Assembly: GCA_947496375.1 (NCBI GenBank)
Contig: CANMCY010000002.1
Coordinates: forward strand, 127,116 to 191,115
DNA from: Flavobacteriales bacterium
GTDB lineage: Bacteria; Bacteroidota; Bacteroidia; NS11-12g; UBA955
Length of the DNA stretch: 64,000 nucleotides
Reading direction: 5' to 3'
Below, piece by piece: positions 2,084 to 64,000 of the stretch (the first letter of the stretch is position 1; the number at the start of each line of letters is the position of its first letter). Under the pieces are notes generated by a model. The model was not told where the DNA came from, did no database searches, and saw only the letters and a program-made list of their open reading frames with translations. The position numbers and the translations under genes are program-made.

Positions 2084-3271
2084 ATGGGTAAAAACAAGGA
2101 AAATCTGCACAGTACCGAGAAAAAACAGGAATATGCCGTACTGGTAGGGGTAGATTTTCCGGCGCAGGAAGGTCGCCTGCATGAATACCTTGACGAACTG
2201 GAGCAGCTGGTATCTACCGCCGGAGCCATTACCCTGAAAAGATTTACCCAAAAACTTCCCCACCCTAACCCGAAAACCTATCTGGGAACGGGCAAACTGG
2301 AAGAACTGGTATTGTGGGTGAAAGATCACAATATCGATATGGTGGTATTTGATGATGAATTATCACCCAGCCAAATCCGAAACCTGGAGCAAGACATGCC
2401 TGATGTGAAGGTACTTAGCCGCACGCACCTGATTCTGGATATTTTTGCCCGAAATGCAAAAACAGCTCAGGCCAAGATTCAGGTAGAACTGGCACAAAGC
2501 GTATTCCTGCTGCCACGCCTTACCCGCATGTGGACGCACCTTAGCCGCCAGAAAGGGGGTATCGGACTCAGGGGGCCCGGAGAAACCGAAATAGAAACCG
2601 ACCGCCGTGCCCTGAGGAATAAAATCAGTGTGCTAAAAGAACGGTTGGCCCACATTGAAAAAACTTCCCGCACCCAGCGCGCTTCCAGAGAAGGCATGTA
2701 TCGTGTGGCTTTGGTGGGTTACACCAACGTGGGTAAAAGCACCATTATGAACCTGCTCAGCAAAGCCGATGTGCTGGTGGAAAACAAACTATTTGCCACG
2801 CTGGATGCCACGGTTCGTAAGCTAGTGCTGCCCCACCCCACAGACGAGTTGAAAACCATGCCCATCCTACTTAGTGATACCGTGGGTTTCATCCGTAAAC
2901 TGCCCACTCAGCTGGTGGAGAGCTTCAAAAGTACGCTGGCAGAGGCCCTTGAGGCGGATATGCTGGTGCATGTGGTCGATATTAGCAGCCCGCATTTTGA
3001 GGAACAAATGCGCTCGGTGAAAGAAACGCTACTGGCCATTGGCGCCGGTAACAAACCTGAACTGGTCGTTTTTAATAAAATTGACGCCTTCCGGGGTGCC
3101 CCCGATGATTTCTTTGTAGGCCAAACCGGCCTCACTGCTACACAATTTGAAAAAAGCTGGATTGCAAAGGAAAATGCACCGGCTGTTTTTATTTCGGCCA
3201 CGGGCAAAGACAATGTGGATGCGCTGAAAAAAGTACTGACGGAGTTGTTGTTGAAGTTACGGATACAATAA
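2084..3271 (+). CDS. hflX: GTPase HflX
   Basis: G1 motif GYTNVGKST, the DTVGF motif, NKID, and an HflX-type N-terminal domain (LQVELAQSVFLLPRL, GPGETEIETDRR). I prefer the start MGKNKEN at 2084. The ORF track's first M is at 2042. Confidence 0.9.
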   Translation: MGKNKENLHSTEKKQEYAVLVGVDFPAQEGRLHEYLDELEQLVSTAGAITLKRFTQKLPHPNPKTYLGTGKLEELVLWVKDHNIDMVVFDDELSPSQIRNLEQDMPDVKVLSRTHLILDIFARNAKTAQAKIQVELAQSVFLLPRLTRMWTHLSRQKGGIGLRGPGETEIETDRRALRNKISVLKERLAHIEKTSRTQRASREGMYRVALVGYTNVGKSTIMNLLSKADVLVENKLFATLDATVRKLVLPHPTDELKTMPILLSDTVGFIRKLPTQLVESFKSTLAEALEADMLVHVVDISSPHFEEQMRSVKETLLAIGAGNKPELVVFNKIDAFRGAPDDFFVGQTGLTATQFEKSWIAKENAPAVFISATGKDNVDALKKVLTELLLKLRIQ

Positions 3272-3320
3272 TAACCTATTTGAATAATTAATATTATTTT
3301 AGTATATTTGATATTGATTT

Positions 3321-3551
3321 ATGACAAAAAAGCAGATTATAGAAAAAACTATTCAAGTCATCAATAAACTACCCACTGATAAAGCTTTAGAGATATCGGA
3401 TTTTGCTGAATTTATATCAAAAAAATACGAAAATTATATTTTAAATGAAGGTATCCAACATTTGGTAAGCGAAAGTCAATCCTTTGATTTTTTATCTGAT
3501 GAGGAAGATCTCTACACTGAAAAAGATATAAAGCAACACCACAATAGCTAA
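3321..3551 (+). CDS. Small hypothetical protein of 76 aa in an AT-rich islet. It may be DUF2281-like or antitoxin-like.
   Basis: The N-terminus MTKKQIIEKTIQVINKLPTDKALEISDFAEFISKK resembles small helical antitoxin-like domains. The local GC is much lower than the flanks. I see no toxin partner. Confidence 0.4.
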   Translation: MTKKQIIEKTIQVINKLPTDKALEISDFAEFISKKYENYILNEGIQHLVSESQSFDFLSDEEDLYTEKDIKQHHNS

Positions 3552-4296: not shown

Positions 4297-4827
4297 ATGA
4301 ACATACGCATGCCTTTCAACCTGAATCAGTGGATTGAGGAAAACAAGCACCTGCTGAAACCCCCGGTGGCCAATAAAAATCTCTATCCCGAAGGCACCGA
4401 CTACATCGTGATGATTGTGGGAGGTCCCAACGCCCGCAAAGACTACCATTACAACGAAACAGAAGAACTTTTCTACCAGCTTGAAGGGGAAGCCCTCATC
4501 AAAATTCAGGTAGACGGCAAATGTGTGGAAGTGCCCTTAAAAGCTGGCGATATGTACCTGCATCCCGCCGGTGTGCCTCATAGCCCCGGTCGCATGGCCG
4601 GCGGTGTGGGCCTCGTTATTGAGCGGGTACGCGAAAACAAAGGATACAAAGACGGACTGCTGTGGTTTTGCGACAAATGCAACACCAAACTGCACGAAAC
4701 CTACTTTGAACTGCAGAATATAGAAACTGATTTTCTGCCCCATTTTAAACACTATTACGGCTCAGAAGAACTGCGCACCTGCAAAACCTGCGGTCATGTA
4801 ATGGAAGCAGATCCTCGTTTTGTATAA
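4297..4827 (+). CDS. nbaC: 3-hydroxyanthranilate 3,4-dioxygenase (kynurenine pathway)
   Basis: Cupin core with HPAGVPHSP, and a C-terminal rubredoxin-like Cys4 (CDKC...CKTCGH). The bacterial HAAO size is about 175 aa. A TAAGTTTG -7 box lies 7 nt upstream. Confidence 0.85.
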   Translation: MNIRMPFNLNQWIEENKHLLKPPVANKNLYPEGTDYIVMIVGGPNARKDYHYNETEELFYQLEGEALIKIQVDGKCVEVPLKAGDMYLHPAGVPHSPGRMAGGVGLVIERVRENKGYKDGLLWFCDKCNTKLHETYFELQNIETDFLPHFKHYYGSEELRTCKTCGHVMEADPRFV

Positions 4828-4836
4828 AGCAGTTTT

Positions 4837-5979
4837 ATGAGGTTTTTCCCGCTGCTTATTTGTTTAGGGCTGTCAACCCCACTGCTCTCGCAGGTAGTGA
4901 ATACCGGTTTTGTGGATACCGCCGGCGGCGAACACCTGGGTAAAATTACGCTGGGCGCCTGTGTGGATGTGTATGCCAACAGCAGCGGAGCGGGGAAAAC
5001 ATTGCCCTACATGGTTTCTTCAGCGCAAAACAACACCTTCGGCGTAAACCTCGCTATGCTCGACATTCGCTATCAGACCACGGGGATAAGAGCTCGGCTG
5101 GTACCCGCGTTTGGAACCTACATGAATGCCAACATGGCCAATGAACCCGGCACCTTGAAAAACCTGCTCGAAGCCAGCGTGGGTGTGCGGATTTCCAAAA
5201 AATTAAACCTGTGGATGGATGCTGGTATTCTGGGCTCGCCCTATACCAATGAAAACCCCGTAAGCAAAGACCAGCTCATGTATTCCCGTTCATTATCTGC
5301 CGAAAATTCACCGTATTACCTAAGCGGGGTTAAACTGGGATTGCCCCTGCGCGAAAACGTCCGTTTCTATGCCTATCTCATCAATGGCTGGCAACAAATT
5401 CAGGATCATAATGAGCAACTTTCACTGGGAACCCAACTGGAATGGCAGCCGGGTAAAAACCACATCATCAACTGGAACACCTATATCGGTAATGAAAAAA
5501 GCATTGACCACCCAAATTTCGGTACCCGCTATTTTACCGACCTCTACTGGATAGGCAAATTGGGCAAAAAATGGGATGTGTCTGCCTGCGTGTATGCCGG
5601 AGTTCAGCGCTATACCTCGCTGCGAACTGACAGTCTTATGCCCATTCCCGACCATGCTGACTATAAACAATATACCTGGTGGAATGCCAATGTGCAGGTG
5701 AAGTATGCTTTTAACTCTAAATTATCGCTTTCAGGACGTTTGGAGTGGTTTGATGATGCCAACAATATCTTTCAAACACCTATGCATCATGCTATTAAGG
5801 GGTATAGAACCGGCAGTTATGGATTTTGTTTAAACCGAAAAATTGAAGATCATGCCCTGCTGAGACTGGAATACCGTCGCTTCTTTAGCGGCAGTGATGC
5901 GATTTCTATTTACCCGTTTGACAGTGGATACCGCGACAACCTGGATGTAGTCAGCGCCTCGATGTTTGTGTGGTTTTAA
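4837..5979 (+). CDS. Outer-membrane beta-barrel, porin-like protein
   Basis: Signal peptide MRFFPLLICLGLSTPLLSQ. The composition is rich in alternating aromatic and polar residues, and the sequence ends with a C-terminal F (..FVWF). Confidence 0.6.
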   Translation: MRFFPLLICLGLSTPLLSQVVNTGFVDTAGGEHLGKITLGACVDVYANSSGAGKTLPYMVSSAQNNTFGVNLAMLDIRYQTTGIRARLVPAFGTYMNANMANEPGTLKNLLEASVGVRISKKLNLWMDAGILGSPYTNENPVSKDQLMYSRSLSAENSPYYLSGVKLGLPLRENVRFYAYLINGWQQIQDHNEQLSLGTQLEWQPGKNHIINWNTYIGNEKSIDHPNFGTRYFTDLYWIGKLGKKWDVSACVYAGVQRYTSLRTDSLMPIPDHADYKQYTWWNANVQVKYAFNSKLSLSGRLEWFDDANNIFQTPMHHAIKGYRTGSYGFCLNRKIEDHALLRLEYRRFFSGSDAISIYPFDSGYRDNLDVVSASMFVWF

Positions 5980-6034
5980 AGATGATACAACTGCTTGGCT
6001 AAAATGTGGGGAGACAAACTTCCATTCAACTCCC

Positions 6035-6105
6035 AAAACCCCGAAGGGGTGGCATTATTATAGCACCAACGGTGCGGTAAATCCCGAACCCCGTAGGGGT
6101 GACAT
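6035..6105. repeat. About 70-bp structured repeat, copy 1. It holds three short hairpins: ccccGAAgggg, gcaccAACggtgc and ccccgTAgggg.
   Basis: Direct repeat of 7399..7470, about 90% identical by eye. Each hairpin is a perfect 4-5 bp GC stem with a 3-nt loop. Confidence 0.8.
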
Positions 6106-6127
6106 AAAAAACAATGTTGTATATTTA

Positions 6128-6157
6128 TAAAAAAACCCGAAGTCGGGCGACTTCGGG
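6128..6157 (-). terminator. Rho-independent terminator for the lipoprotein gene 6191..6571 on the minus strand
   Basis: cccgaagtcg-gg-cgacttcggg is a perfect 10-bp inverted repeat. On the plus strand an A7 run precedes it, which is a T-run on the minus strand. It sits 30 nt downstream of the gene's stop. Confidence 0.7.
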
Positions 6158-6190
6158 CTGTGTGTTAGCTATTGAGCTATTATGGTTTAG

Positions 6191-6571
6191 TTATTCTAAT
6201 GTTAATGTGAGTTCCAAATCTTTGCCTGCTACTATTTGAATTTGACCTTCTCCATAATATTCATCACTGCCTACAACATGATAACAGTCGTAATAATAGT
6301 TTCCAGGATTTAACTGTCCAAAATTTGCTTGGCCATTAGAATTAGTTACTTTTTCTTGTAAATAAATTGAATTGTCAAGATTTGCTTGAGATGTAGCAAG
6401 TCCAACATCAACACCTGTTAAAAAACCTGTAGAACCCTCTAGTTTAACTTTAACAACCAAACCACCCGTCGTAGGTGTTGGAGCAGGATCTTCTTTGGAA
6501 CAAGAATTTAGAGAGAACGTACCCATTAGCAGCACTAATGCCAAACCAAGATTGTAAATTGTTTTTTTCAT
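6191..6571 (-). CDS. Small lipoprotein of 126 aa with a single carboxypeptidase-regulatory-like or transthyretin-like beta-sandwich domain
   Basis: Signal peptide plus lipobox (LMGTFSLNSC). The pattern GLVVKVKLEGSTGF..VTNSNGQANFGQLNPGNYYY resembles CarbopepD_reg-like domains. Codon usage is AT-rich compared with the neighbouring genes. Confidence 0.6.
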   Translation of the reverse strand: MKKTIYNLGLALVLLMGTFSLNSCSKEDPAPTPTTGGLVVKVKLEGSTGFLTGVDVGLATSQANLDNSIYLQEKVTNSNGQANFGQLNPGNYYYDCYHVVGSDEYYGEGQIQIVAGKDLELTLTLE

Positions 6572-6721
6572 GTTTTGAGTTAATATTTAATTGTTTTCAA
6601 CACTAACCCATAACAATAAGAATTCAAAACACGTGTAGATTGTATTTTCCACTTTTTATGAACACTACCCTATTTGTTGTGCTTTTGTCGTTTTAATTGT
6701 ATTATAATTTAGTTTAACCCC

Positions 6722-7018
6722 ATGTTTGCACACAAAACCACCGAATACAAGCAGCCGGGGAACATCGGCAATAAAATCAAAATGGTGCGTGAAAGCATAA
6801 ACCTCTCTCAGGAGTACGTAGCTACCAAACTGAATATCAGCCAGCAAACTTACTCCCGTATAAAGAAAAATCTGGATAATATTTCCGTTTCACGCCTGCG
6901 TGAATTATCCTCCATTCTGGGTGTGACGATCAATACGCTGGTAGGCGAAGATGACTTGTGTATACAACAAAATTACAACCAGAAGGGTGGCAATGCCGGC
7001 ACTGTAATGAATGTGTAA
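6722..7018 (+). CDS. XRE-family helix-turn-helix transcriptional regulator. It may be truncated, because an in-frame TAA is followed by a 33-codon helical extension.
   Basis: HTH_3 signature NKIKMVRESINLSQEYVATKLNISQQTYSRIKKN. After the TAA at 7016-7018 the same frame continues GPTDSERKVYEERINDLKQQLEAMQKLLLALSK* to 7120. Confidence 0.7.
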   Translation: MFAHKTTEYKQPGNIGNKIKMVRESINLSQEYVATKLNISQQTYSRIKKNLDNISVSRLRELSSILGVTINTLVGEDDLCIQQNYNQKGGNAGTVMNV

Positions 7019-7123
7019 GGCCCGACAGACAGCGAGCGAAAAGTGTATGAAGAACGCATCAACGACCTGAAACAACAACTGGAGGCCATGCAGAAGCTGT
7101 TGCTGGCGTTGAGTAAGTAGTGT

Positions 7124-7208
7124 GGTTTATTGGTTCATCAGTTTATTGGTGTATTGGTTTATTAGTCTATTGGTGATGTGCATTTACCTAATAAACCAAT
7201 CAACAATT
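7124..7208. repeat. Iteron-like cluster. It has four or five direct TTTATTGGT repeats plus a 13-bp inverted repeat, attggtttattag ... ctaataaaccaat.
   Basis: Direct reading of the sequence: gtttattggttcatcagtttattggtgtattggtttattagtctattggtg....cctaataaaccaatcaacaat. Confidence 0.6.
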
Positions 7209-7235
7209 AAACTGGTTACAATTAATACAGCAGGG

Positions 7236-7270
7236 TTGTGAAATAAAACCCAAAGTCGGGAGACTTCGGG
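7236..7270. repeat. GC-rich hairpin module, copy 2: ggttgtgaaataaaa followed by cccaaagtcggg-a-gacttcggg.
   Basis: Near-identical to the hairpin at 6136..6157. The ggttgtgaaataa motif occurs again at 7488..7500. Confidence 0.6.
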
Positions 7271-7322
7271 TAGCGGTGCAAAGTAGCTGGGATAACGCAG
7301 CCTTAGGGCAGTGGATGCATTA

Positions 7323-7341
7323 ATGCCACCCCTTCGGGGTT
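7323..7341. repeat. Inverted partial copy of repeat hairpin 1 (atgccaccccttcggggtt)
   Basis: It is the reverse complement of the aaccccgaaggggtggcat core found in both 70-bp repeat copies. Confidence 0.6.
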
Positions 7342-7398
7342 CCTATTACCGTCTATTTGGTTATTATTATCATTCCGCTCCTCCGGAGCTGTTTACAA

Positions 7399-7470
7399 AA
7401 AAACCCCGAAGGGGTGATATTATTATAGCACCAACGGTGCGATACATCCCAAACCCCGAAGGGGTGGCAT
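7399..7470. repeat. About 70-bp structured repeat, copy 2
   Basis: aaaaccccgaaggggtgatattattatagcaccaacggtgcgatacatcccaaaccccgaaggggtggcat. It is a direct repeat of 6035..6105. Confidence 0.8.
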
Positions 7471-7505
7471 ACATTCAATTGAGCTAGGTTGTGAAATAAG
7501 ACCTT

Positions 7506-8132
7506 TCAGTCCTGCATTCCCTTTCCCTGTAAAATCCTGTCTCTGTTTTTGGCAATTCTGTCAATGCGGGTTTGGGATTGTTTGGCACCCCCAAAATAGA
7601 GGATATAGCCCCTTTGCCTGCCCGGTGTTAATGCAAAAAACGCTGAAGACAGCTCTGCATCCGATTTGATGGCCTGCTGGAGCTCCTCACACATGGGCTG
7701 CTGTTCCGGTGAGTTGAAAGTCACTTTCTGTCCGGATTCTTCTATCAAAATGGCCTCTTTGAGGTAACCCATAATACTGGAAGACTGCGCTGTTACCTCT
7801 TCAGGCGCCGTAAACTTCATGTATCGTGCTGACTGACTGTTCTCACCGGGTTTCACCAGAAGATTTTCCGGATCTTTCATCAGTGCGCCTTTTAAGAAAC
7901 TGAGGGTGGCACAGCCCTTTAATACCCCCAGCAACACTACATTTTTCTTTCCTGTCACATAGCAGGGCACGCCCCACTTACGGGTTTCTGTGAGACCGCT
8001 TTCAAGCACCAGGTCCCTCAACAATATCAACTCATCCCGCCAGGTGTGAACCTTACATGCCGGCGTTCCTCCAAGCGAGCAGCGTCCGCAACCCTCCATA
8101 AAAAAAACGTCTGCTTCGGAAACGGCTCTCAC
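7506..8132 (-). CDS. YdeI/OmpD-associated family protein (DUF1801-like)
   Basis: C-terminal signature FFALTPGRQRGYILYFGGAKQSQTRIDRIAK together with an N-terminal CGRC..C motif. Confidence 0.65.
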   Translation of the reverse strand: MRAVSEADVFFMEGCGRCSLGGTPACKVHTWRDELILLRDLVLESGLTETRKWGVPCYVTGKKNVVLLGVLKGCATLSFLKGALMKDPENLLVKPGENSQSARYMKFTAPEEVTAQSSSIMGYLKEAILIEESGQKVTFNSPEQQPMCEELQQAIKSDAELSSAFFALTPGRQRGYILYFGGAKQSQTRIDRIAKNRDRILQGKGMQD

Positions 8133-54616: not shown

Positions 54617-56065
54617 TGGTCTATATTAATGATGCGTTGCGTGATTTATTGCCTTATTTTGCTGCTGATGAGATACGAAAAATTCATAATAACACTGATG
54701 GTGATGACCGTTTTTATGGATGATTTTCGTTTTGGAAGTGAAGATTTTCGCCGTTCTGCAACCTTTGATTTTTATTATTACTACGTAATATGGATTCTCT
54801 TTATCGTTCATTATATCCGCAAAAGAAGGGAAATTCCTGTTTGGCCGCGATGGTTTATGCTGGGTCTACTTGCCTTGTTTACCAATTCTGTATTCGGGGG
54901 AGCAGCATCGGGAAGCTTAAAATTTCCCATGCTAAAACAGATGATTGGTATTACGTATTCTTCGGTTGCTTATTTGTCACTAATCAAATTTAATGATTAC
55001 GATCTTAAAAAGATATTTAATATCTACCTGAAAGCTGCGTTTTGGGTGGCTATATGGGGAATCGCTGAACAAGCCATGCATGTTTTTGGATTTAAATTCA
55101 GGTTTGCAGGAAGTTTTATTGAGGATTTTACCAAGTTAATCGGTTTTGAAAATTTTTGGAACAATTACAAAATTACTTCCACCGGGTTCAACCGCGTCTA
55201 TTCCATCATGGGCGAACCCTATTATCTTGCAGTTGCGCTGTTACCTGCTTTTTTTTATTATTCCAACCGCCTTTTTGGAAGCAAAAACTTTAGGGATTGG
55301 GGGTATAAGTGGCATTTTGGGGTTTTAGCACTTTGTTTTTTATTTACTTTCAGTACAGCCGGCTATGTGGGCATTCTAATGACAGGTATGTTTATTGGTG
55401 TAAACCGTGGTTTTTTTGACCTCCGACGGTTTGGATTACTTTTTATTCCTATTTTTCTCCTCATTCTATTACCAAACATTGCCCGCCTAAGAACCGCTTT
55501 TTTTGAACTGCAGGTGCGAGTGGATGATACTGTTAAAGCTTTTTTGTACAAAGGAATTATGGATAAAAAAGAAATAGCTAAACTAAACTCCTCCACTTTT
55601 GCCCTGTATTCCAATTTTTTAATCGCCGGAAAATCTTTTGAGGAACATCCTATCACGGGGGGGGGGCTAGGATCACATGAAATCAGCTATAATAAGTTTT
55701 TTGATGTTTTTTTGGATAAAAACATTAAAAAAATGTACGGCACATTTAACTCCAAAGATGCAAATTCCCTTTTTATTAGATTGCTATCCGAAACCGGCAT
55801 CATCGGTCTGATTGTTTTTTTTGTTGCACTTTTTTCGTTTTTTGCTTACAAAAAAGGAATTGATATCCCTGAAATTTCTACCCTTACCATTATCAATCAA
55901 GCGGTATTTGTCATGCTGATAATTCGGTTACTTCGGACCGGTAATTATATCGGCCAGGGTTTTTACTTCTTCTTTTTCTTATATGCCTTTGCAGCCATTC
56001 AGATAAGGCAATACTACAAAAATCAACCCTCTGCCTCAATAGCAGAAAATATCCCGGATGCCTGA
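54608..56065 (+). CDS. O-antigen polymerase/ligase-like polytopic membrane protein (Wzy/WaaL family)
   Basis: About 11-12 transmembrane helices and a large periplasmic loop near the C-terminal third. It lies within a glycosyltransferase locus. Confidence 0.65.
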   Translation: MRHWSILMMRCVIYCLILLLMRYEKFIITLMVMTVFMDDFRFGSEDFRRSATFDFYYYYVIWILFIVHYIRKRREIPVWPRWFMLGLLALFTNSVFGGAASGSLKFPMLKQMIGITYSSVAYLSLIKFNDYDLKKIFNIYLKAAFWVAIWGIAEQAMHVFGFKFRFAGSFIEDFTKLIGFENFWNNYKITSTGFNRVYSIMGEPYYLAVALLPAFFYYSNRLFGSKNFRDWGYKWHFGVLALCFLFTFSTAGYVGILMTGMFIGVNRGFFDLRRFGLLFIPIFLLILLPNIARLRTAFFELQVRVDDTVKAFLYKGIMDKKEIAKLNSSTFALYSNFLIAGKSFEEHPITGGGLGSHEISYNKFFDVFLDKNIKKMYGTFNSKDANSLFIRLLSETGIIGLIVFFVALFSFFAYKKGIDIPEISTLTIINQAVFVMLIIRLLRTGNYIGQGFYFFFFLYAFAAIQIRQYYKNQPSASIAENIPDA

Positions 56066-57228: not shown

Positions 57229-58217
57229 GATAACGAATAACCCGCCGCACGCATTACATCTTCGCGGGTGTAGGATTTCATGGGAATGTTGATCTCTGTT
57301 TTGGCAAATGTTTCGGGGATGTCTTCTCCCTGAATCAGTTTTTGCAGCCAGGGTTTATAGTAGGAAGGGGTTTGAGGGCGGTTGAGAACTTCCTGCAGGT
57401 ATTGTATGTCTGCAATCCCTTTTTCCTGAATAAAACGACAAACGGCTTGTATGCTGTAGCTGTCTATTTCCGGACCCACCGCACTACGGGTTGGAGCAAA
57501 ATATTCATTTTCATCAATACCCGTGAAGGCATCGCCATCAGGATACCACTGAACGGTATTTGCCACTGAAATGCCAAACTGTTTTTCCATTCCCAGCAGC
57601 TGTATGGCTTTCCTAAGAGGAGTTTTAAATGCTTTCAGCAATGGGTTGTGACGCAACGAATCTGTAGCGCGCTTTTTATCGGGTGTCCATAGCTGCAGGG
57701 TGGCACTGTACGTTTCTGGAAGATATACGATGTGTGGTTCCCAACTGTCGATGGTATGCACAGGATATTGCTGCTGGGTAAAATGCTTACTTACCCTGAG
57801 TTTCGTTTTGCCGCCCTCAACCTGGATATTTTTATCAAACAGCATGGTTTCATAACCGGAACCCAGAATGGCTGCAGTTGTCAGTATATAATTGTTGTGA
57901 TGATGTATGCAGTGAGCAGCAATTCCTTTGACGTGTGTAGGATGCGAAGCAAAGAAATGGATTTTCATAACCATATCTTCATTTTCGTAGATATACAGAA
58001 AGGGTATGTTATACTGGCTCCAGGTTTGTTTGAGATACCCTTCATCATTAAAATTTCTGCGAACAACCTGTTTCAAAAATTCTGCATCACTGCCCATTTG
58101 TTGCAACAACGGACCGGCCTTCTCATGAAGCAAATTGCGGTTTTCATGCGTTCTGTTTAGTTCAAGTATTTGTTGGATATAGTGGTGCTGAGAAAGCTGT
58201 TCCTGATTCATTTGCAT
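57225..58217 (-). CDS. Hypothetical protein of 330 aa with a His-rich motif. It may be a metal-dependent enzyme.
   Basis: HFFASHPTHVKGIAAHCIHHHNNY cluster. I recognise no family. It overlaps the downstream GT4 gene by 4 nt. Confidence 0.45.
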   Translation of the reverse strand: MQMNQEQLSQHHYIQQILELNRTHENRNLLHEKAGPLLQQMGSDAEFLKQVVRRNFNDEGYLKQTWSQYNIPFLYIYENEDMVMKIHFFASHPTHVKGIAAHCIHHHNNYILTTAAILGSGYETMLFDKNIQVEGGKTKLRVSKHFTQQQYPVHTIDSWEPHIVYLPETYSATLQLWTPDKKRATDSLRHNPLLKAFKTPLRKAIQLLGMEKQFGISVANTVQWYPDGDAFTGIDENEYFAPTRSAVGPEIDSYSIQAVCRFIQEKGIADIQYLQEVLNRPQTPSYYKPWLQKLIQGEDIPETFAKTEINIPMKSYTREDVMRAAGYSLS

Positions 58218-58295
58218 TTGTAAAGTTCCTTGATTAAAATATAATGTGAGTTATTTTTATCAGAGTATATTGCCCTACAGGGCTTATTTGTAATT

Positions 58296-58565
58296 TTAAG
58301 GAAACGACCTGTAAATGTCTTTTCTATGGGCTACAATAATTAGTCGGATAGTTGTTTCTGCTATCTTTTCCAGACCAATCCTGTAGGCTCCTAATCGAAT
58401 TCTATAATACGTTTTAAAACCACTTAGTTTTTTAAGATTTTTAATTTCGTGGAATGATTTGGCATTTTCCAGATCAGCAATTATTGTTTCAATTTTAGGT
58501 AATATGCTTTTGTCCTTGACTTTGTCAATAGATTTTTCAAATGATTTGTCAAATTCAACAATCAC
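58296..58565 (-). CDS. Type II toxin, RelE/ParE family
   Basis: YYRIRLGAYRIGL....IVAHRKDIY is the RelE/ParE signature. The gene is AT-rich. Confidence 0.8.
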   Translation of the reverse strand: MIVEFDKSFEKSIDKVKDKSILPKIETIIADLENAKSFHEIKNLKKLSGFKTYYRIRLGAYRIGLEKIAETTIRLIIVAHRKDIYRSFP

Positions 58566-59874: not shown

Positions 59875-60506
59875 TAAATCATGCGTACCACCTCAAACAC
59901 CTCAGCCAGGGGCAGTCCCACTTGAACCCCACGCACTTTGGCCAAACTTTGAATGAAATCAGGTTTCATGTAGGGGCGGTGTGCCTGGCTTTTGTAGCAA
60001 GCCAACGCGCGCATTTTAGCGTCTACATGTTTTTGCTCCAGGGAATAAAACAGGGTGGTTTTAAATTCAAAATTATTCCAAGGCAATTCATAACAAAGCA
60101 ACGTCGAAAATTTAAAAGCCCGCACAGCTTCTTGGGCAATGGTATAATGATCCTGGTGAATGTCATTAACACTCGGCACAAAAACCACATCCGGTTTAAT
60201 TTTATTCCGTAAATTCAGAATATCATCCAGAATTTCCTGGCGGTGAAAATTGAAAGTGCGTACATCGTAATCAAACAGGTGCAGATTTTCTGCAGGAATA
60301 CCCAATTCCCGGGTAGATGCCTTAATTTCCTGAACAAGCACATCTTCCGGAAACCCTTCCAGAACACTGTGTCTGCAAGCCGAAAATGCGGCTATATGGA
60401 CCTGGTTGCCTTGTTCCAGCAGCAGTTTTATGGTTCCGCCACAGCCCAGTTCGGCATCGTCGGTGTGGGGTGAAAGAATGAGGATGGATTTGTTTGTAAA
60501 TTTCAA
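59871..60506 (-). CDS. PIG-L / LmbE-family N-acetylglucosaminyl deacetylase
   Basis: ILSPHTDDAELGCGGTI (HxDD...G) and the HQDH motif. Confidence 0.85.
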   Translation of the reverse strand: MKFTNKSILILSPHTDDAELGCGGTIKLLLEQGNQVHIAAFSACRHSVLEGFPEDVLVQEIKASTRELGIPAENLHLFDYDVRTFNFHRQEILDDILNLRNKIKPDVVFVPSVNDIHQDHYTIAQEAVRAFKFSTLLCYELPWNNFEFKTTLFYSLEQKHVDAKMRALACYKSQAHRPYMKPDFIQSLAKVRGVQVGLPLAEVFEVVRMIY

Positions 60507-60510
60507 TTTT

Positions 60511-61761
60511 TTAATTTGGTTTTAGGTAAGGTATAATTTTCTTTGTTAAGTTTTCAATGCTATATTCATTAATGTCCAATTCCTTGTTAAAAGTCAATTC
60601 ATGACTAATTAACTCTAAAAGACGTTTTTTTATTGTTCCTTTATAAATGCCAAAACCAATCTTATTTTTTTCAACAAAATCAGTAGTTGGTCCTGGCTCA
60701 GAAAAAACAATAATAGGTTTTCTTAATGCTATTGCCTCATAGAATTTTGTGCTTTTTGAGTATTTTAAATCATCAGTTAAAAATAACATAGAATAATCAG
60801 CATTTAAGGAATCAACAATGGCATCATTAAATTTCTTTATACCACTATATCTAATAATCTGGTGATTATGTGTTATTTCTTGAAACCATGACGGAATCTC
60901 TCCCATAAAATTAAATTCCAATCTATTATAAATTTCAATGTTTTCAACCCTAATTTGGTCTAAAGCCTGCACAAATTCTGTAAAAACAATTTCAGTTTTA
61001 TTATACAGGGTACCTGAAAAGCTAAATATTATTTTATCCGTTTTTTTTAAATCCTCTTCTAAAACATGTATTTTATTATAGTCATGCGGATCAAACCCAT
61101 TTGGCAGCGTTACACATTTTTCATGCCCTGCAGATAATAGATGCTTAAAATGATTTTTCATTTCTTCAGAAACAGCAAATACAGTGTCATATTCTCTCAA
61201 AACAAACTTTTCTAGGTCTTGTTCATATTTCAATGATTCATCATTTAAACCGGAAAAACCAAATGAAGTTTGATTATTAGACCATGGGTCCCGAAAATCA
61301 ACAATGAAATTAACGTGTGGGAAATATTTTTTTACTTCAATAATTTCAGCAGCCATGTGAAACGGTCCTACTGTAACTAAAATATTGTTTACGCCATTAT
61401 TTATTTCCTTTTTTATAAGAGGTAATATTTTTTTTCCAAAACCTATAGAATAGTCATAAAAGTTTTGATTCTTGTAATTGCTTTTTACCTTAATTAATGC
61501 TAATCTATACCTGATTTTTTGAAATACCGTATCAGGCCGAGTCATTAAGATGGTTGGATAAGTCATTTTTTCATATAAAACAGGAATTTCAGATTGTAAA
61601 TCATTATTCCATTGGCTATCCGACAACCCGTCTTTTTTGGCTGCTATAACCCTACAATCAACCCCATTTTTATTTAAGTACTTTGAGAATTTAACCCATC
61701 TTCTTCCACCAATTCCGGAATATGGTGGAAAAGTAAAGCTCACAATGAGTAGGCGTATCAT
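60511..61761 (-). CDS. Glycosyltransferase (GT4-like). The gene is strongly AT-rich.
   Basis: N-terminal FPPYSGIGGRRW, which matches the GT4 N-terminal sugar-donor pocket. Its GC content is far below the flanking genes. Confidence 0.65.
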   Translation of the reverse strand: MIRLLIVSFTFPPYSGIGGRRWVKFSKYLNKNGVDCRVIAAKKDGLSDSQWNNDLQSEIPVLYEKMTYPTILMTRPDTVFQKIRYRLALIKVKSNYKNQNFYDYSIGFGKKILPLIKKEINNGVNNILVTVGPFHMAAEIIEVKKYFPHVNFIVDFRDPWSNNQTSFGFSGLNDESLKYEQDLEKFVLREYDTVFAVSEEMKNHFKHLLSAGHEKCVTLPNGFDPHDYNKIHVLEEDLKKTDKIIFSFSGTLYNKTEIVFTEFVQALDQIRVENIEIYNRLEFNFMGEIPSWFQEITHNHQIIRYSGIKKFNDAIVDSLNADYSMLFLTDDLKYSKSTKFYEAIALRKPIIVFSEPGPTTDFVEKNKIGFGIYKGTIKKRLLELISHELTFNKELDINEYSIENLTKKIIPYLKPN

Positions 61762-61849: not shown

Positions 61850-63748
61850 TCATTTCAAAAGTTGTGCGTTTATCTCTTGCCAAATCCTTTGGCTTTTTTT
61901 GAGATCAAATGTCTCATTCGGATTTGTTTTCTTTAATTCTGAGAGTTCTGAAGAAGGGAGAACCATCAGGTCTTCCTTGAAATTGGTTGAACTCAACATA
62001 TCCATCATCCATTCTTTTAGCGGCCCATTTGCCCAATGCTCAATGGGGCTGCCGATTCCCACCTTAAACGTTCTTTTTCTGATTCCTTCAGCCATTCGTC
62101 CTTTCATGGCTTCCCTTAAAATACGTTTATTAAAGCCACCGCCAATTTTTGCTTCTGTGGGCAACGAGAACAAATATGTTACCAAACGCCAGTCCATAAA
62201 TGGCATGCGTATTTCTACCCCATGCATCATACCCGCCCTATCAAAATTGCCTAAAATGGTGGGAAGTGAATTAACAAACGTTTCAAAATACAACAGCCGC
62301 TGCGGATAGGGTAGTTGACCCAATTGATAATCTTCACCCAAGCCCAGCAGCATGGGATGGTTTTCCAGATTGTCTTTGGGCCTGTTCTTTAGATACGACC
62401 CCAATTTGTATTTTAATCTTTTGATAGGGTTTTTTGCAATTTCCCTTAATACGTTCAAATTACTATAAACCCTTTCCCTTTCAGACTCGGCATAAGTTTC
62501 CACAATAATATCAGAGAGTGACAATGCCAACTTGGTTGAGCCTTCAGAAAAATAATGATGATAAAGACGGTACAACATATCGCGATAACCATACATCATT
62601 TCATCTACCGCATGACCATCAAGTGATACAGAGATGCCATTTTTCTTCATGCCCTCATAAATGCCGGCTATGGAAGTAATAGGAGCAGTTGAAATTGCAT
62701 CAAACATCATGGTATCCGCGGCCACCCTATCCGGAAGATTGTTTTCATTTTGCTCCAGATAGGTTACAGGTCCACCAGTAAATGCAACCGCTTCCTCCGC
62801 ATATTTTCGTTCATCCATGGCCAAACCAGGAAATGTAGCCACAAATGCCTGTTGACTGTTTTTGTGTGAACGTTCAAATGACTCTGTATTTAGCAAATGA
62901 TGAACCATGGAGTAAACACTGCTGGAATCCAATCCCCCGCTAAGTGCAGTTCCTATGGGAACATCACTGATTAATCTAAGACGACAAGCATCCTTGAACA
63001 ATTCATAAAAACATTCCGTTTGTTCCCGGAAGGATTTGGGAATGTTGTTATGAAGATGGTTTGAAATGTGCCACCAACGTTTTTGCTGCAATGGTTTATT
63101 CGCGGAAACCACCGCATAATGCCCGGGAAGAATCTGTTTTATGTTTTGAAAAATGGAGTAGCCTGACCCATCTATTGGGATTCCGGCAACCTGTAAATCC
63201 AGATACGTTTTATTTAAACTGCGCTGAAATCCCTCCAGATGTTTAAACGCCCGTGTTTCACTGGCAAAAGCAATTATTTTACCCGGTATATGCAAATAAT
63301 ACAAGGGCTTTATCCCAAAACGATCCCTGCATAGGATGAGTTCTTTTCGCAATTCATCCCAAATGGCCATGGCCCACATCCCGTTAAATTTATCAAGAGA
63401 CTGAATTCCCCATTTATCCCAAGCAGCTAAAATCACCTCTGTATCCGTATTCGACTTAAATTCATAGCCCAATGTTTCTAATTCTGCTTTTATTTCACCA
63501 AAATTGAAAACTTCCCCATTGTAGGTGATGGTATATCTTCCATTGTCAGATAACATAGGCTGTTTACCCAAATCAGACAAATCGAGAATGGACAAACGCC
63601 TGTGTCCAAGGCCCAGGGTGTTGTTTTCTAAAAGTGTATAGCCGCCGCCATCAGGTCCTCTGTTGGCCATAGAATCCGTAAACGTTTTTAGTTTTTGCTC
63701 TGTAACGGCAGTGCCGTCAAGATGCCATATTCCTGCAATTCCGCACAT
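61850..63748 (-). CDS. Asparagine synthase-like, glutamine-hydrolysing amidotransferase, paralogue 2
   Basis: MCGIAGIW N-terminal nucleophile, and PP-loop SGGLDSS. Confidence 0.85.
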   Translation of the reverse strand: MCGIAGIWHLDGTAVTEQKLKTFTDSMANRGPDGGGYTLLENNTLGLGHRRLSILDLSDLGKQPMLSDNGRYTITYNGEVFNFGEIKAELETLGYEFKSNTDTEVILAAWDKWGIQSLDKFNGMWAMAIWDELRKELILCRDRFGIKPLYYLHIPGKIIAFASETRAFKHLEGFQRSLNKTYLDLQVAGIPIDGSGYSIFQNIKQILPGHYAVVSANKPLQQKRWWHISNHLHNNIPKSFREQTECFYELFKDACRLRLISDVPIGTALSGGLDSSSVYSMVHHLLNTESFERSHKNSQQAFVATFPGLAMDERKYAEEAVAFTGGPVTYLEQNENNLPDRVAADTMMFDAISTAPITSIAGIYEGMKKNGISVSLDGHAVDEMMYGYRDMLYRLYHHYFSEGSTKLALSLSDIIVETYAESERERVYSNLNVLREIAKNPIKRLKYKLGSYLKNRPKDNLENHPMLLGLGEDYQLGQLPYPQRLLYFETFVNSLPTILGNFDRAGMMHGVEIRMPFMDWRLVTYLFSLPTEAKIGGGFNKRILREAMKGRMAEGIRKRTFKVGIGSPIEHWANGPLKEWMMDMLSSTNFKEDLMVLPSSELSELKKTNPNETFDLKKSQRIWQEINAQLLK

Positions 63749-64000
63749 GTATTAATTTTTATATTTATGGCTAACAGTTATTTTAATCTTATGCATAATT
63801 TACAGTTTTTTTATAATTATGTTAATTATATTAATTTGTTTTCTTTATCAAATAACTATATTAACGTTCAACACAAGAATGCATATTAAAAATTAGAATA
63901 TTTTGGGTAAAAAAAATTTCAAGAGTAAATAAAATCTAACTTTTTTATGAAATTGTCCTCGTTATAAACACATTTTGAGTCCATACTCGATGAAGGAATT

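Follow-up and report, generated by a model that had tools for sequence, protein, structure and literature searches.

In a 64-kb window of the Flavobacteriales bacterium contig CANMCY010000002.1 (by the window we mean the whole 64,000-nt stretch that was analyzed), the spacer between a BBP2 (OmpL-like) porin gene and a DUF1801 gene contains short two-hairpin repeats, referred to here as arms, together with a lipoprotein gene and a gene for an XRE-type regulator. An earlier note on this DNA had interpreted the spacer as a low-GC cassette of about 1.5 kb bounded by direct repeats of about 70 bp. We consider it probable that the locus is an array of hairpins resembling repetitive extragenic palindromic (REP) sequences and bacterial interspersed mosaic elements (BIMEs), a recombination hot spot with an accessory indel, and not a mobile cassette flanked by miniature inverted-repeat transposable elements (MITEs). 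Three arms (A on the plus strand, C on the minus strand, and B on the plus strand), together with linker and terminator-like hairpin units, fill the porin–DUF1801 spacer at a synteny breakpoint.

Arms A (6035–6106, plus strand) and B (7400–7471, plus strand) form a 72-nt direct repeat with 65 of 72 positions identical (90%) and a spacing of 1365 nt. It is the longest repeat of the entire 64-kb window, and the pair of about 90%-identical repeats reported in the earlier note is real. Each 72-mer consists of two copies of a 19-nt module, AACCCCGAAGGGGTGrCAT, exactly 50 nt apart, with an ATTATAG box and a middle hairpin, GCACCAACGGTGC, between them. In arm A, the first module hairpin (H1) occupies 6037–6055 and the second (H2) 6087–6105. 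When folded, an arm gives three small hairpins that stay separate, particularly clean in arm B, and the arm hairpins have 5-bp stems closed by a GAA loop. All copies of a 15-nt core, AACCCCGAAGGGGTG, that the window contains, five in number, fall inside a stretch of 1.5 kb, compared with 0.17 expected from shuffles. The fifth copy belongs to arm C (7321–7395, minus strand), a diverged two-hairpin unit that lies head-to-head with arm B and was recognized from the inverted repeats I2, I3, and I5; its H1 is CTCCGGAGGAG and its H2 is AACCCCGAAGGGGTGGCAT.

The three arms are also recovered by a covariance model (R1) built from 85 arms of other genomes, none of them from the source organism or its relatives. 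On the window, the model matches arm B at 7402–7470 (plus strand, 73.5 bits, E = 7.5e-12), arm A at 6037–6105 (plus strand, 67.6 bits, E = 1.1e-10), and arm C at 7323–7390 (minus strand, 54.7 bits, E = 3.4e-8). No fourth match was found in the 64-kb window, and there was none in relatives without arms. The window and five related loci were also compared with Rfam, and no family reached its gathering threshold. The best match below threshold was Acido-Lenti-1 RNA at 6037–6074 and 7453–7475 on the minus strand (17 bits against a threshold of 37), a similarity that probably reflects a shared hairpin shape only.

Arms A, B, and C are members of a widespread family of hairpin repeats that lie outside genes. 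A scan for the exact 18-base core of the family, with one genome per GTDB species, returned at least 119 loci, with about 17 chance matches estimated from the database size. The loci listed, to which the following observations refer, come mostly from Bacteroidota (Chitinophagales, Saprospiraceae, Cyclobacteriaceae, Flavobacteriales, and Bacteroidales); others belong to Ignavibacteria, Chloroflexota, Nitrospirota, and one Planctomycetota genome (Jettenia). Two to four core copies often lie within a few hundred bases, several other genomes have two or three separate core loci each, and convergent arm pairs occur at many loci. The shared architecture can be written as AAyCCC-GAA-GGGrTG..AT, followed by (g/t)ATTATAG, about 22 variable nucleotides, and AACCCC-GAA-GGGGTGrCAT. 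The start-to-start spacing of H1 and H2 peaks at 47–53 nt, matching the arms of the window. Only 17.9% of the modules fall inside stop-free stretches of at least 120 amino acids, although such stretches make up 84.4% of the bases.

The hairpin is under selection, as demonstrated by compensatory changes in the H1 stem. The arms for this test were chosen by the box and the second hairpin only, so pairing in the first stem was not favored by the way they were selected. Paired cells make up 92.4% of the H1 stem, compared with 81.2 ± 0.6 in shuffles, and 84 double changes were counted where 19.3 were expected; none of 500 shuffles reached 84. All five pairs are changed on both sides, and one position alone is represented by 77 CG, 42 UA, and 13 GC pairs. 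When the pairing partner is shifted by one to three columns, only 37–54% of the cells pair.

The subfamily found in the window recurs at L140, a locus unrelated to this one, where at least seven arms are arrayed. The array is flanked there by an RCC1-repeat gene on one side and, on the other, by a hypothetical-protein gene that follows sugar-nucleotide genes. L140 also has a hairpin similar to the terminator-like T hairpins described below, and units composed of arm, linker, and T hairpin are repeated both there and in L151, a relative of the window species. The repeat is thus not unique to the porin–DUF1801 locus, either as a subfamily (L140) or as a wider family (at least 119 loci in many genomes). 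A literature search gave no relevant paper that prints the arm motif string. A phage link was considered and rejected: the 18-base core pattern had no match in 2.9 million viral contigs. One further candidate from the metagenome scan, L137 (JACDJA010000196.1, 700–760), was set aside as an arm locus: it is a different, ~37-nt tandem repeat with the arm box and middle hairpin, ATTATGATAGCACCAGCGGTGCG, and without the CCCCGAAGGGG modules, so that the middle hairpin alone is in common. This may be a variant related to the arms, or the match may be due to chance.

The locus was compared among strains and relatives. The structure of the window is repeated in independent JGI, ENA, and Logan assemblies (L002–L006); L002 remains colinear with it over 6.2 kb at 97.8% identity, and the identity of L003–L006 is 98.7–100%. 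Conversely, the conspecific 23-kb contig L139, which is 98.2–98.6% identical on both sides, lacks window positions 6112–7315 and has no insert; its five arms run A, C′, A2, C, B (+ − + − +), a 186-nt A–C unit being duplicated. A third conspecific allele, L138 (98.6%), has a single arm between porin and DUF1801. Arm number therefore varies between conspecific strains and can be one, three, or five. In L007, a relative with 83–91% identity, arms A, C, and B are adjacent, and the 39-nt spacer between A and C is the one seen in L139; this contig ends 40 nt past arm B, in a terminator-like hairpin. The 22.6-kb contig L153, from a 90% relative, has neither arms nor a lipoprotein or XRE gene at the site, and its order is porin, leader, an AT-rich inverted repeat (pal), the terminator-like hairpin T2, and DUF1801. 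Finally, L151 and L152 (89%, with a lipoprotein 93% identical to that of the window) carry the insert behind a longer array, whose units of about 160 nt each run from a leader hairpin through an arm and a linker to a T hairpin; three tandem pal units are also present. Since the insert is missing in L139 and L153, the region is indeed not core genome, as the earlier note had proposed, and the empty sites it had envisaged exist: L139 lacks 6112–7315, and the porin and DUF1801 genes of L153 are only 238 nt apart.

The 1.2-kb insert of the window lies between arms A and C. In insert-free strains, the H2 hairpins of arms A and C are inverted with respect to each other and pair across 39 nt (from the fold of L139 3850–3940), so the insert occupies the loop of this pair. 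Its boundaries coincide with unit boundaries. At its junctions, about 19–25 nt of spacer are replaced, and no duplication brackets it. The bases that distinguish A from B are common to the window species and L007, which indicates that the arms are older than the insert. At other positions, A and B are alike within a genome and different between the window species and L007; judging from this pattern, the arms seem to undergo some gene conversion. The alleles L007 and L139 favor a gain of the insert in the lineage of the window.

The insert is a mosaic of one gene that looks acquired and of native DNA, namely the XRE gene, pal, and T2. Windowed GC is 0.33–0.34 over roughly 6150–6750, while the flanking genes have a GC content of 0.48–0.50 and a GC content at third codon positions (GC3) of 0.52–0.55. 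The low GC is limited to about 0.6 kb, comprising the lipoprotein gene (6191–6571, minus strand, 126 amino acids) and its promoter. A sharp drop in GC content and codon usage had been described for the cassette as a whole; it holds for the lipoprotein gene and promoter (GC 0.33–0.35, with a GC3 of 0.18 in the gene), which amount to about half of the interval, and not for the XRE gene, which resembles the flanks. The lipoprotein gene itself has a GC content of 0.346 and a GC3 of 0.18, compared with a GC3 of 0.52–0.58 in its neighbors, including the XRE gene, and it is the sole compositionally foreign gene in the interval.

The lipoprotein gene was identified from its open reading frame, lipobox, and composition. 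Its product has a signal peptide and a lipobox, LNSC, with Cys24 followed by SKED, an arrangement that presumably resembles the surface-export signal of Bacteroidetes. The predicted structure is a single transthyretin/CnaB-like β-sandwich (pLDDT 87.8), and a fold search returned generic transthyretin/CnaB β-sandwich matches and no functional lead. Homologs with 60–76% identity occur in genomes of 33–38% GC and in unrelated contexts. Judging from its composition and homologs, the gene looks horizontally acquired. The idea of a lipoprotein–XRE module that travels as a unit was rejected, because the neighborhoods of the homologs contain no XRE partner and no arms and have nothing in common. The proposal of a mobilized or recombined insertion is supported for the lipoprotein gene, which looks horizontally acquired, and does not extend to the native XRE gene, pal, and T2 within the mosaic.

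The XRE/HTH_3 gene (6722–7120 with its open frame, plus strand; Pfam PF01381, 1.3e-13) has a GC content of 0.454 and a GC3 of 0.58, like the flanking genes, and on this sequence evidence it is native. The gene ends at an in-frame TAA (7016–7018, codon 99), so that the gene proper spans 6722–7018, and beyond the stop a further 33 codons are open, as far as 7120. An ortholog of 133 amino acids is found in L013, 5.7 kb from the porin gene; the similarity to that locus starts only at window position 6714. In L002, codon 99 is CAA and the gene has its own stop at codon 105. The stops in the window and in L002 are therefore six codons apart; both versions keep the helix-turn-helix domain and drop the C-terminal helix of the 133-residue ortholog. 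This truncation could represent decay, or selection for a shortened regulator. The region between the divergent lipoprotein and XRE genes (6572–6721) is AT-rich (GC about 0.33) and presumably holds the promoters.

The remaining parts of the insert are noncoding. Next to arm A lies an A-rich linker that leads into hairpin T1 (6107–6159 in total, minus strand; T1 at 6134–6159), found by a terminator scan and folding. T1 has an 11-bp stem followed by TTTTTTT, sits directly 3′ of the lipoprotein gene, and has a fold z-score of −4.9. Downstream of the XRE frame, pal (7123–7216, with arms at 7139–7165 and 7188–7214) was found by an inverted-repeat search and has a fold z-score of −4.5. It contains repeated TATTGGT motifs and occurs without an XRE gene in L153 (4250–4385) and as a tandem triplicate in L151. 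An array of operators is one possible identity for pal, and a further repeat module is another. The segment at 7217–7271 (minus strand), detected by repeat and terminator scans, combines a 34-nt unit, D2a, containing the G-box GGTTGTGAAATAAAACC, with hairpin T2 (7248–7271). T1 and T2 are 90% alike, and both are terminator-like on the minus strand. Window positions 7217–7271 are 87% identical to a stretch just downstream of DUF1801 in L153. Since the arm-free site of L153 holds pal and T2, window positions 7123–7276 are ancestral intergenic DNA. In L153 4205–4290, which corresponds to window 7217–7276 plus 7489–7505, T2 lies between two 17-nt G-box copies, GGTTGTGAAATAAAACC and GGATTGTGAAACAAGACC, and this terminator-like hairpin may be an inserted mini-element.

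The arm family is linked to a transposase gene. At 28 of the 119 loci listed, the modules have an open reading frame of about 153 amino acids no more than tens of bases away. Its product matches NCBIfam transpos_IS200 with 62 bits (cutoff 55) and Pfam Y1_Tnp at 5.5e-24, and it has a weak match to solved IS200/IS605 transposases. The arm-linked Y1 proteins share 60–80% identity across phyla, and their genes look single-copy and conserved. They contain the motifs DH[IV]H, WQ-G-G-FSY, and YI-nQe-HH (Y---Q--HH). These features agree with the signature of TnpA-Y1 subclass 1.2, which comprises proteins of about 148–154 amino acids with DH[IV]H, WQ, and Y---Q--HH and is found in Bacteroidetes (Quentin et al. 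2018, PMC6006769). By these sequence motifs, the arm-linked Y1 proteins are members of subclass 1.2, that is, IS200-like and of class 1. In the 20 full-length cases, some 25 nt typically separate the end of the plus arms from the ATG, and the minus arms start 7–44 nt past the stop codon, so that most of these genes are bracketed by arms in inverted orientation, with plus arms upstream and minus arms downstream. Such bracketing is seen in many Bacteroidota and in some Ignavibacteria, Chloroflexota, Nitrospirota, and other groups; elsewhere the arms also form alternating or tandem arrays, like REP/BIME sequences around a RAYT gene.

We propose that the arms were multiplied by a trans-acting Y1 enzyme that would cut and join single-stranded hairpin DNA. 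Such cutting and joining is known for IS608 TnpA and for Escherichia coli TnpA-REP (PMC6006769, PMC8266576). The arms and the insert, for their part, would be gained and lost through homologous or slipped-strand recombination among the units and not through transposition of a cassette. Recombination within the array would cover not only the gain or loss of 1.2 kb but also the 186-nt A–C unit doubled in L139 and the reduction to one arm in L138. A more specific proposal, that the IS200-like Y1 proteins of subclass 1.2 have the two-hairpin arms as their cognate REP-type repeats, is a tentative one, and we would put it at somewhat below even chances.

The closest known parallel is the REPtron arrangement of REP/BIME or REPIN repeats with genes for REP-associated tyrosine transposases (RAYTs), reportedly described by Nunvar (2010), Bertels and Rainey (2011), and Ton-Hoang (2012), and also treated by Quentin et al. 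(2018). As in the REP/BIME–RAYT system, the repeats are short hairpins outside genes that occur as inverted doublets and as arrays of alternating orientation, and these arrays lie between converging genes and vary among strains. In other genomes, the same repeats flank a small Y1 gene of the HUH type in inverted orientation, as in a REPtron. The arm differs from a REP in its size and composition, however: it is a unit of about 70 nt with a conserved ATTATAG box and two hairpins whose spacing is fixed at about 50 nt, whereas a REP is a single palindrome of 20–40 nt. In addition, the arm stems have only 5 bp, with a GAA triloop. The bracketing of 20 full-length genes by arms is likewise unlike the published description of subclass 1.2 (Quentin et al., PMC6006769). 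With IS200/IS605 elements and with palindrome-associated transposable elements (PATEs) and MITEs, the system shares the Y1 Pfam family, the presumed recognition of subterminal hairpins in single-stranded DNA, and gene-less intergenic copies. Unlike the ends of IS200/IS605 elements, which are not inverted, the arms around Y1 genes are, and they occur in arrays instead of discrete elements with defined left and right ends.

Several observations weigh against our interpretation. The arms lack the 5′ GT[AG]G tag of classical REPs and have conserved flanks of 5′ AA and 3′ TG..AT. The arm-linked Y1 proteins carry Y---Q--HH (class 1, subclass 1.2) and not the Y---NP of class 2 RAYTs, and subclass 1.2 has been listed without REP sequences and generally without terminal hairpins (Quentin et al. 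2018, PMC6006769). No such Y1 protein is known to act on these hairpins, and the search for REPtron and TnpA-Y1 literature after 2018 gave nothing on repeats of subclass 1.2. A tblastn search with four Y1 proteins detected no Y1 gene in the 64-kb window. The exact subfamily was recovered at just one other locus, L140, which may derive from a different organism. The arm of L138 is a B/A/B mosaic, while one crossover between the arms of the window predicts a hybrid with an A-type 5′ part and a B-type 3′ part; because this contig ends 57 nt beyond the arm, it is also weaker evidence by itself. Finally, L151 (89%) has the insert as well, so the insert may be old and repeatedly lost. The group designated IS200 Group 3 shows no duplicates and yet has abundant 16-mers on its flanks (Bertels et al. 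2017, PMC5581495). This group is possibly equivalent to the arm-linked subclass 1.2 proteins.

Among the alternatives, an explanation at the RNA level is unlikely. The modules would then be stabilizers or terminators in the 3′ untranslated regions of porin and DUF1801, multiplied by local duplication, with no transposase-linked family behind them. Classical REPs stabilize upstream mRNA, and the position of the modules downstream of converging genes would suit such a role. The same is true of their G+C-rich hairpins with covarying stems and of the resemblance of T1 and T2 to intrinsic terminators. However, the modules are found in both orientations and in arrays, and what recurs at an unrelated locus and across many phyla is their sequence itself and not the structure alone. 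The fixed geometry around Y1 genes is not accounted for either. At the most variable H1 stem position, there are 2 UG pairs against 58 double changes, and this scarcity of G–U pairs is compatible with a hairpin formed in DNA or one required on both strands. The absence of an Rfam family at threshold also argues against this explanation. A secondary effect of the arms on transcripts is possible.

A composite mobile cassette, in which A and B would serve as IS200/IS605-type ends and a Y1 enzyme acting in trans would move the segment A–lipoprotein–XRE–B, seems quite improbable. The direct orientation and 90% identity of A and B are reminiscent of the subterminal hairpins of IS200/IS605, which likewise have the same orientation, but the arms around Y1 genes are inverted and not direct. 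The link between the arm family and an IS200-like Y1 transposase, the presence or absence of the insert among strains, and the single arm at the L138 site could each be reconciled with cassette movement. What decides against it is that the conspecific L139 and the more distant relative L007 both have A, C, and B side by side but no insert, and that the differences between A-type and B-type arms predate the species split. Furthermore, the insert lies between A and C and not between two equivalent ends, and half of the segment is native DNA that occupies the same place in L153. Every contig with an exact match to the lipoprotein has the same context, and more distant homologs are found without arms. 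The genes between arms A and B are those for the lipoprotein and the XRE regulator, with no tnpA or tnpB among them. The view that the repeats are the ends of a cassette, or a product of its insertion, is thus contradicted by the adjacent arms in L139 and L007. The specific suggestion of a MITE-flanked cassette has to be abandoned as well: A and B are direct repeats, with no terminal inverted repeats and no target-site duplication.

It is very unlikely that we are dealing with an ordinary flexible islet, in which the core genes on either side would recombine homologously to exchange the content and the repeats would be bystanders. The site is a synteny breakpoint whose content is different in every related lineage, and the lipoprotein gene is compositionally foreign, as would be expected of an islet. 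Yet the variants differ by whole units (one, three, or five arms, the 186-nt A–C unit in L139, and the arm–linker–T unit of about 160 nt in L151), and the insert boundaries fall at unit boundaries, which argues for recombination within the array. This explanation overlaps with the hairpin-array reading and differs from it only in what the repeats contribute. An assembly artefact, with the repeat pair or the empty-site alleles arising from mis-joined metagenome contigs, is hardly credible: short contigs do end at or near arms (L001 at 6076, L003 at 7391, and L138 57 nt past its arm), but the structure of the window recurs in independent assemblies, and L139 and L153 (23 and 22.6 kb) cross the site with kilobases on each side and hold spacer sequence that is absent from the window, which a collapse cannot create.

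Other known systems and motifs were compared with the arms and rejected. Small genes between imperfect structured repeats of about 70 nt are reminiscent of integron attC cassettes. However, the two modules of an arm are direct and not inverted, they do not form a single long bulged hairpin, and arms also exist without cassettes. No R″/R′ core sites of attC were seen by eye in the arms, and no integrase or attI was found near them, where the neighbors are the porin, 3-HAO, DUF1801, and a protein of the type IX secretion system (T9SS). The attC/integron and MITE readings are both ruled out by the arm structure together with the insert-free alleles. A σ54 promoter in arm A was suggested by TGGCAT-N5-TAGCA with GG-N10-GC spacing; the corresponding position of arm B reads GATAT (compared by eye). 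A tRNA-fragment att site was considered on account of the T-arm-like leader hairpin GGTGGTTTCAAATCCACC; ARAGORN detected no tRNA anywhere in the window, and the resemblance is missing from a second leader allele.

If the arms are cognate to subclass 1.2, they would define an undescribed REPtron class spanning the phyla Bacteroidota, Ignavibacteria, Chloroflexota, Nitrospirota, and Planctomycetota. This class would be marked by a composite recognition unit of 70 nt, a fixed hairpin spacing of 50 nt, and the ATTATAG box, and its arrays would create variation in gene content at the strain level, as they appear to do here. For the locus itself, the notion of a mobile cassette gives way to a picture in which a hairpin-repeat array at a synteny breakpoint grows and shrinks and, among strains of a single species, captures or sheds a small gene for a surface lipoprotein. 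More broadly, a repeat family defined by sequence is tied to a conserved Y1 subclass whose DNA partner was reported missing. Biochemists are offered an explicit substrate in the hairpins H1 and H2, flanked by the conserved AA and TG..AT, and the covariance model can be used by annotators, as the repeat breaks metagenome assemblies in many Bacteroidota. The system also bears on the question of whether IS200-type transposases were domesticated into REP-handling enzymes more than once.

The surroundings of the array are those of a breakpoint between two conserved blocks. The porin gene (4837–5979, plus strand; Pfam PF07642, 3.2e-56) closes the left-hand synteny block HflX, methyltransferase, 3-HAO, and porin. 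Gene order 5′ of porin is kept in all relatives and breaks right after it; in more distant relatives, with porins 78–83% identical, the left-hand order is conserved and a different gene set follows 3′ of porin. The DUF1801/OmdA (YdeI-like) gene (7506–8132, minus strand; Pfam PF08818 and PF13376) is the first gene of the conserved right-hand block. Its neighbor, a gene for a large T9SS protein, is kept in relatives, while its other side is variable, and the far side of DUF1801 shows the same pattern of kept and changed neighbors in distant relatives. Because the order to the left is kept while different genes follow beyond it, and likewise at DUF1801, the porin/DUF1801 site is a synteny breakpoint. 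The two genes converge, and the arms sit between their stop codons. The porin, lipoprotein, XRE, and DUF1801 genes are all as the earlier note had described them, according to their open reading frames and Pfam matches.

The array is bordered by two further repeated sequences. A leader remnant (5980–6034, plus strand) was recognized ahead of it by alignment with strains and L140. Directly 3′ of the porin stop codon, this leader has 44 nt fewer in the window than in L002, L138, and L139. At the unrelated locus L140, the array is likewise preceded by a similar leader, which may therefore be part of a dispersed element. On the right, a second 34-nt unit, D2b (7470–7503, plus strand), carries another G-box copy and abuts the DUF1801 stop codon. 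It is 79% identical to D2a (7217–7250), and the unit contains GGTTGTGAAATAArACC.

Additional small regions of variable content or low GC were noted elsewhere. Between the HflX and methyltransferase genes, window positions 3050–3350 have a GC content of 0.29–0.35; at the corresponding place L013 has a PemK toxin gene with a 76-residue partner and L002 a called gene of 76 amino acids, so this stretch may be a toxin–antitoxin remnant. In L007, whose porin is 87% identical, a Fic-domain gene (4430–5224) lies between the methyltransferase and 3-HAO genes and is absent there in the window, which makes this a second small indel site 1–2 kb from the one studied here. Other low-GC islands of the window, none of which contains arm modules, are at 55400–55700, 58100–58550, 60350–61650, and 63500–64000. 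The largest of them (60350–61650) has a GC content of 0.26–0.31, below that of the lipoprotein gene.

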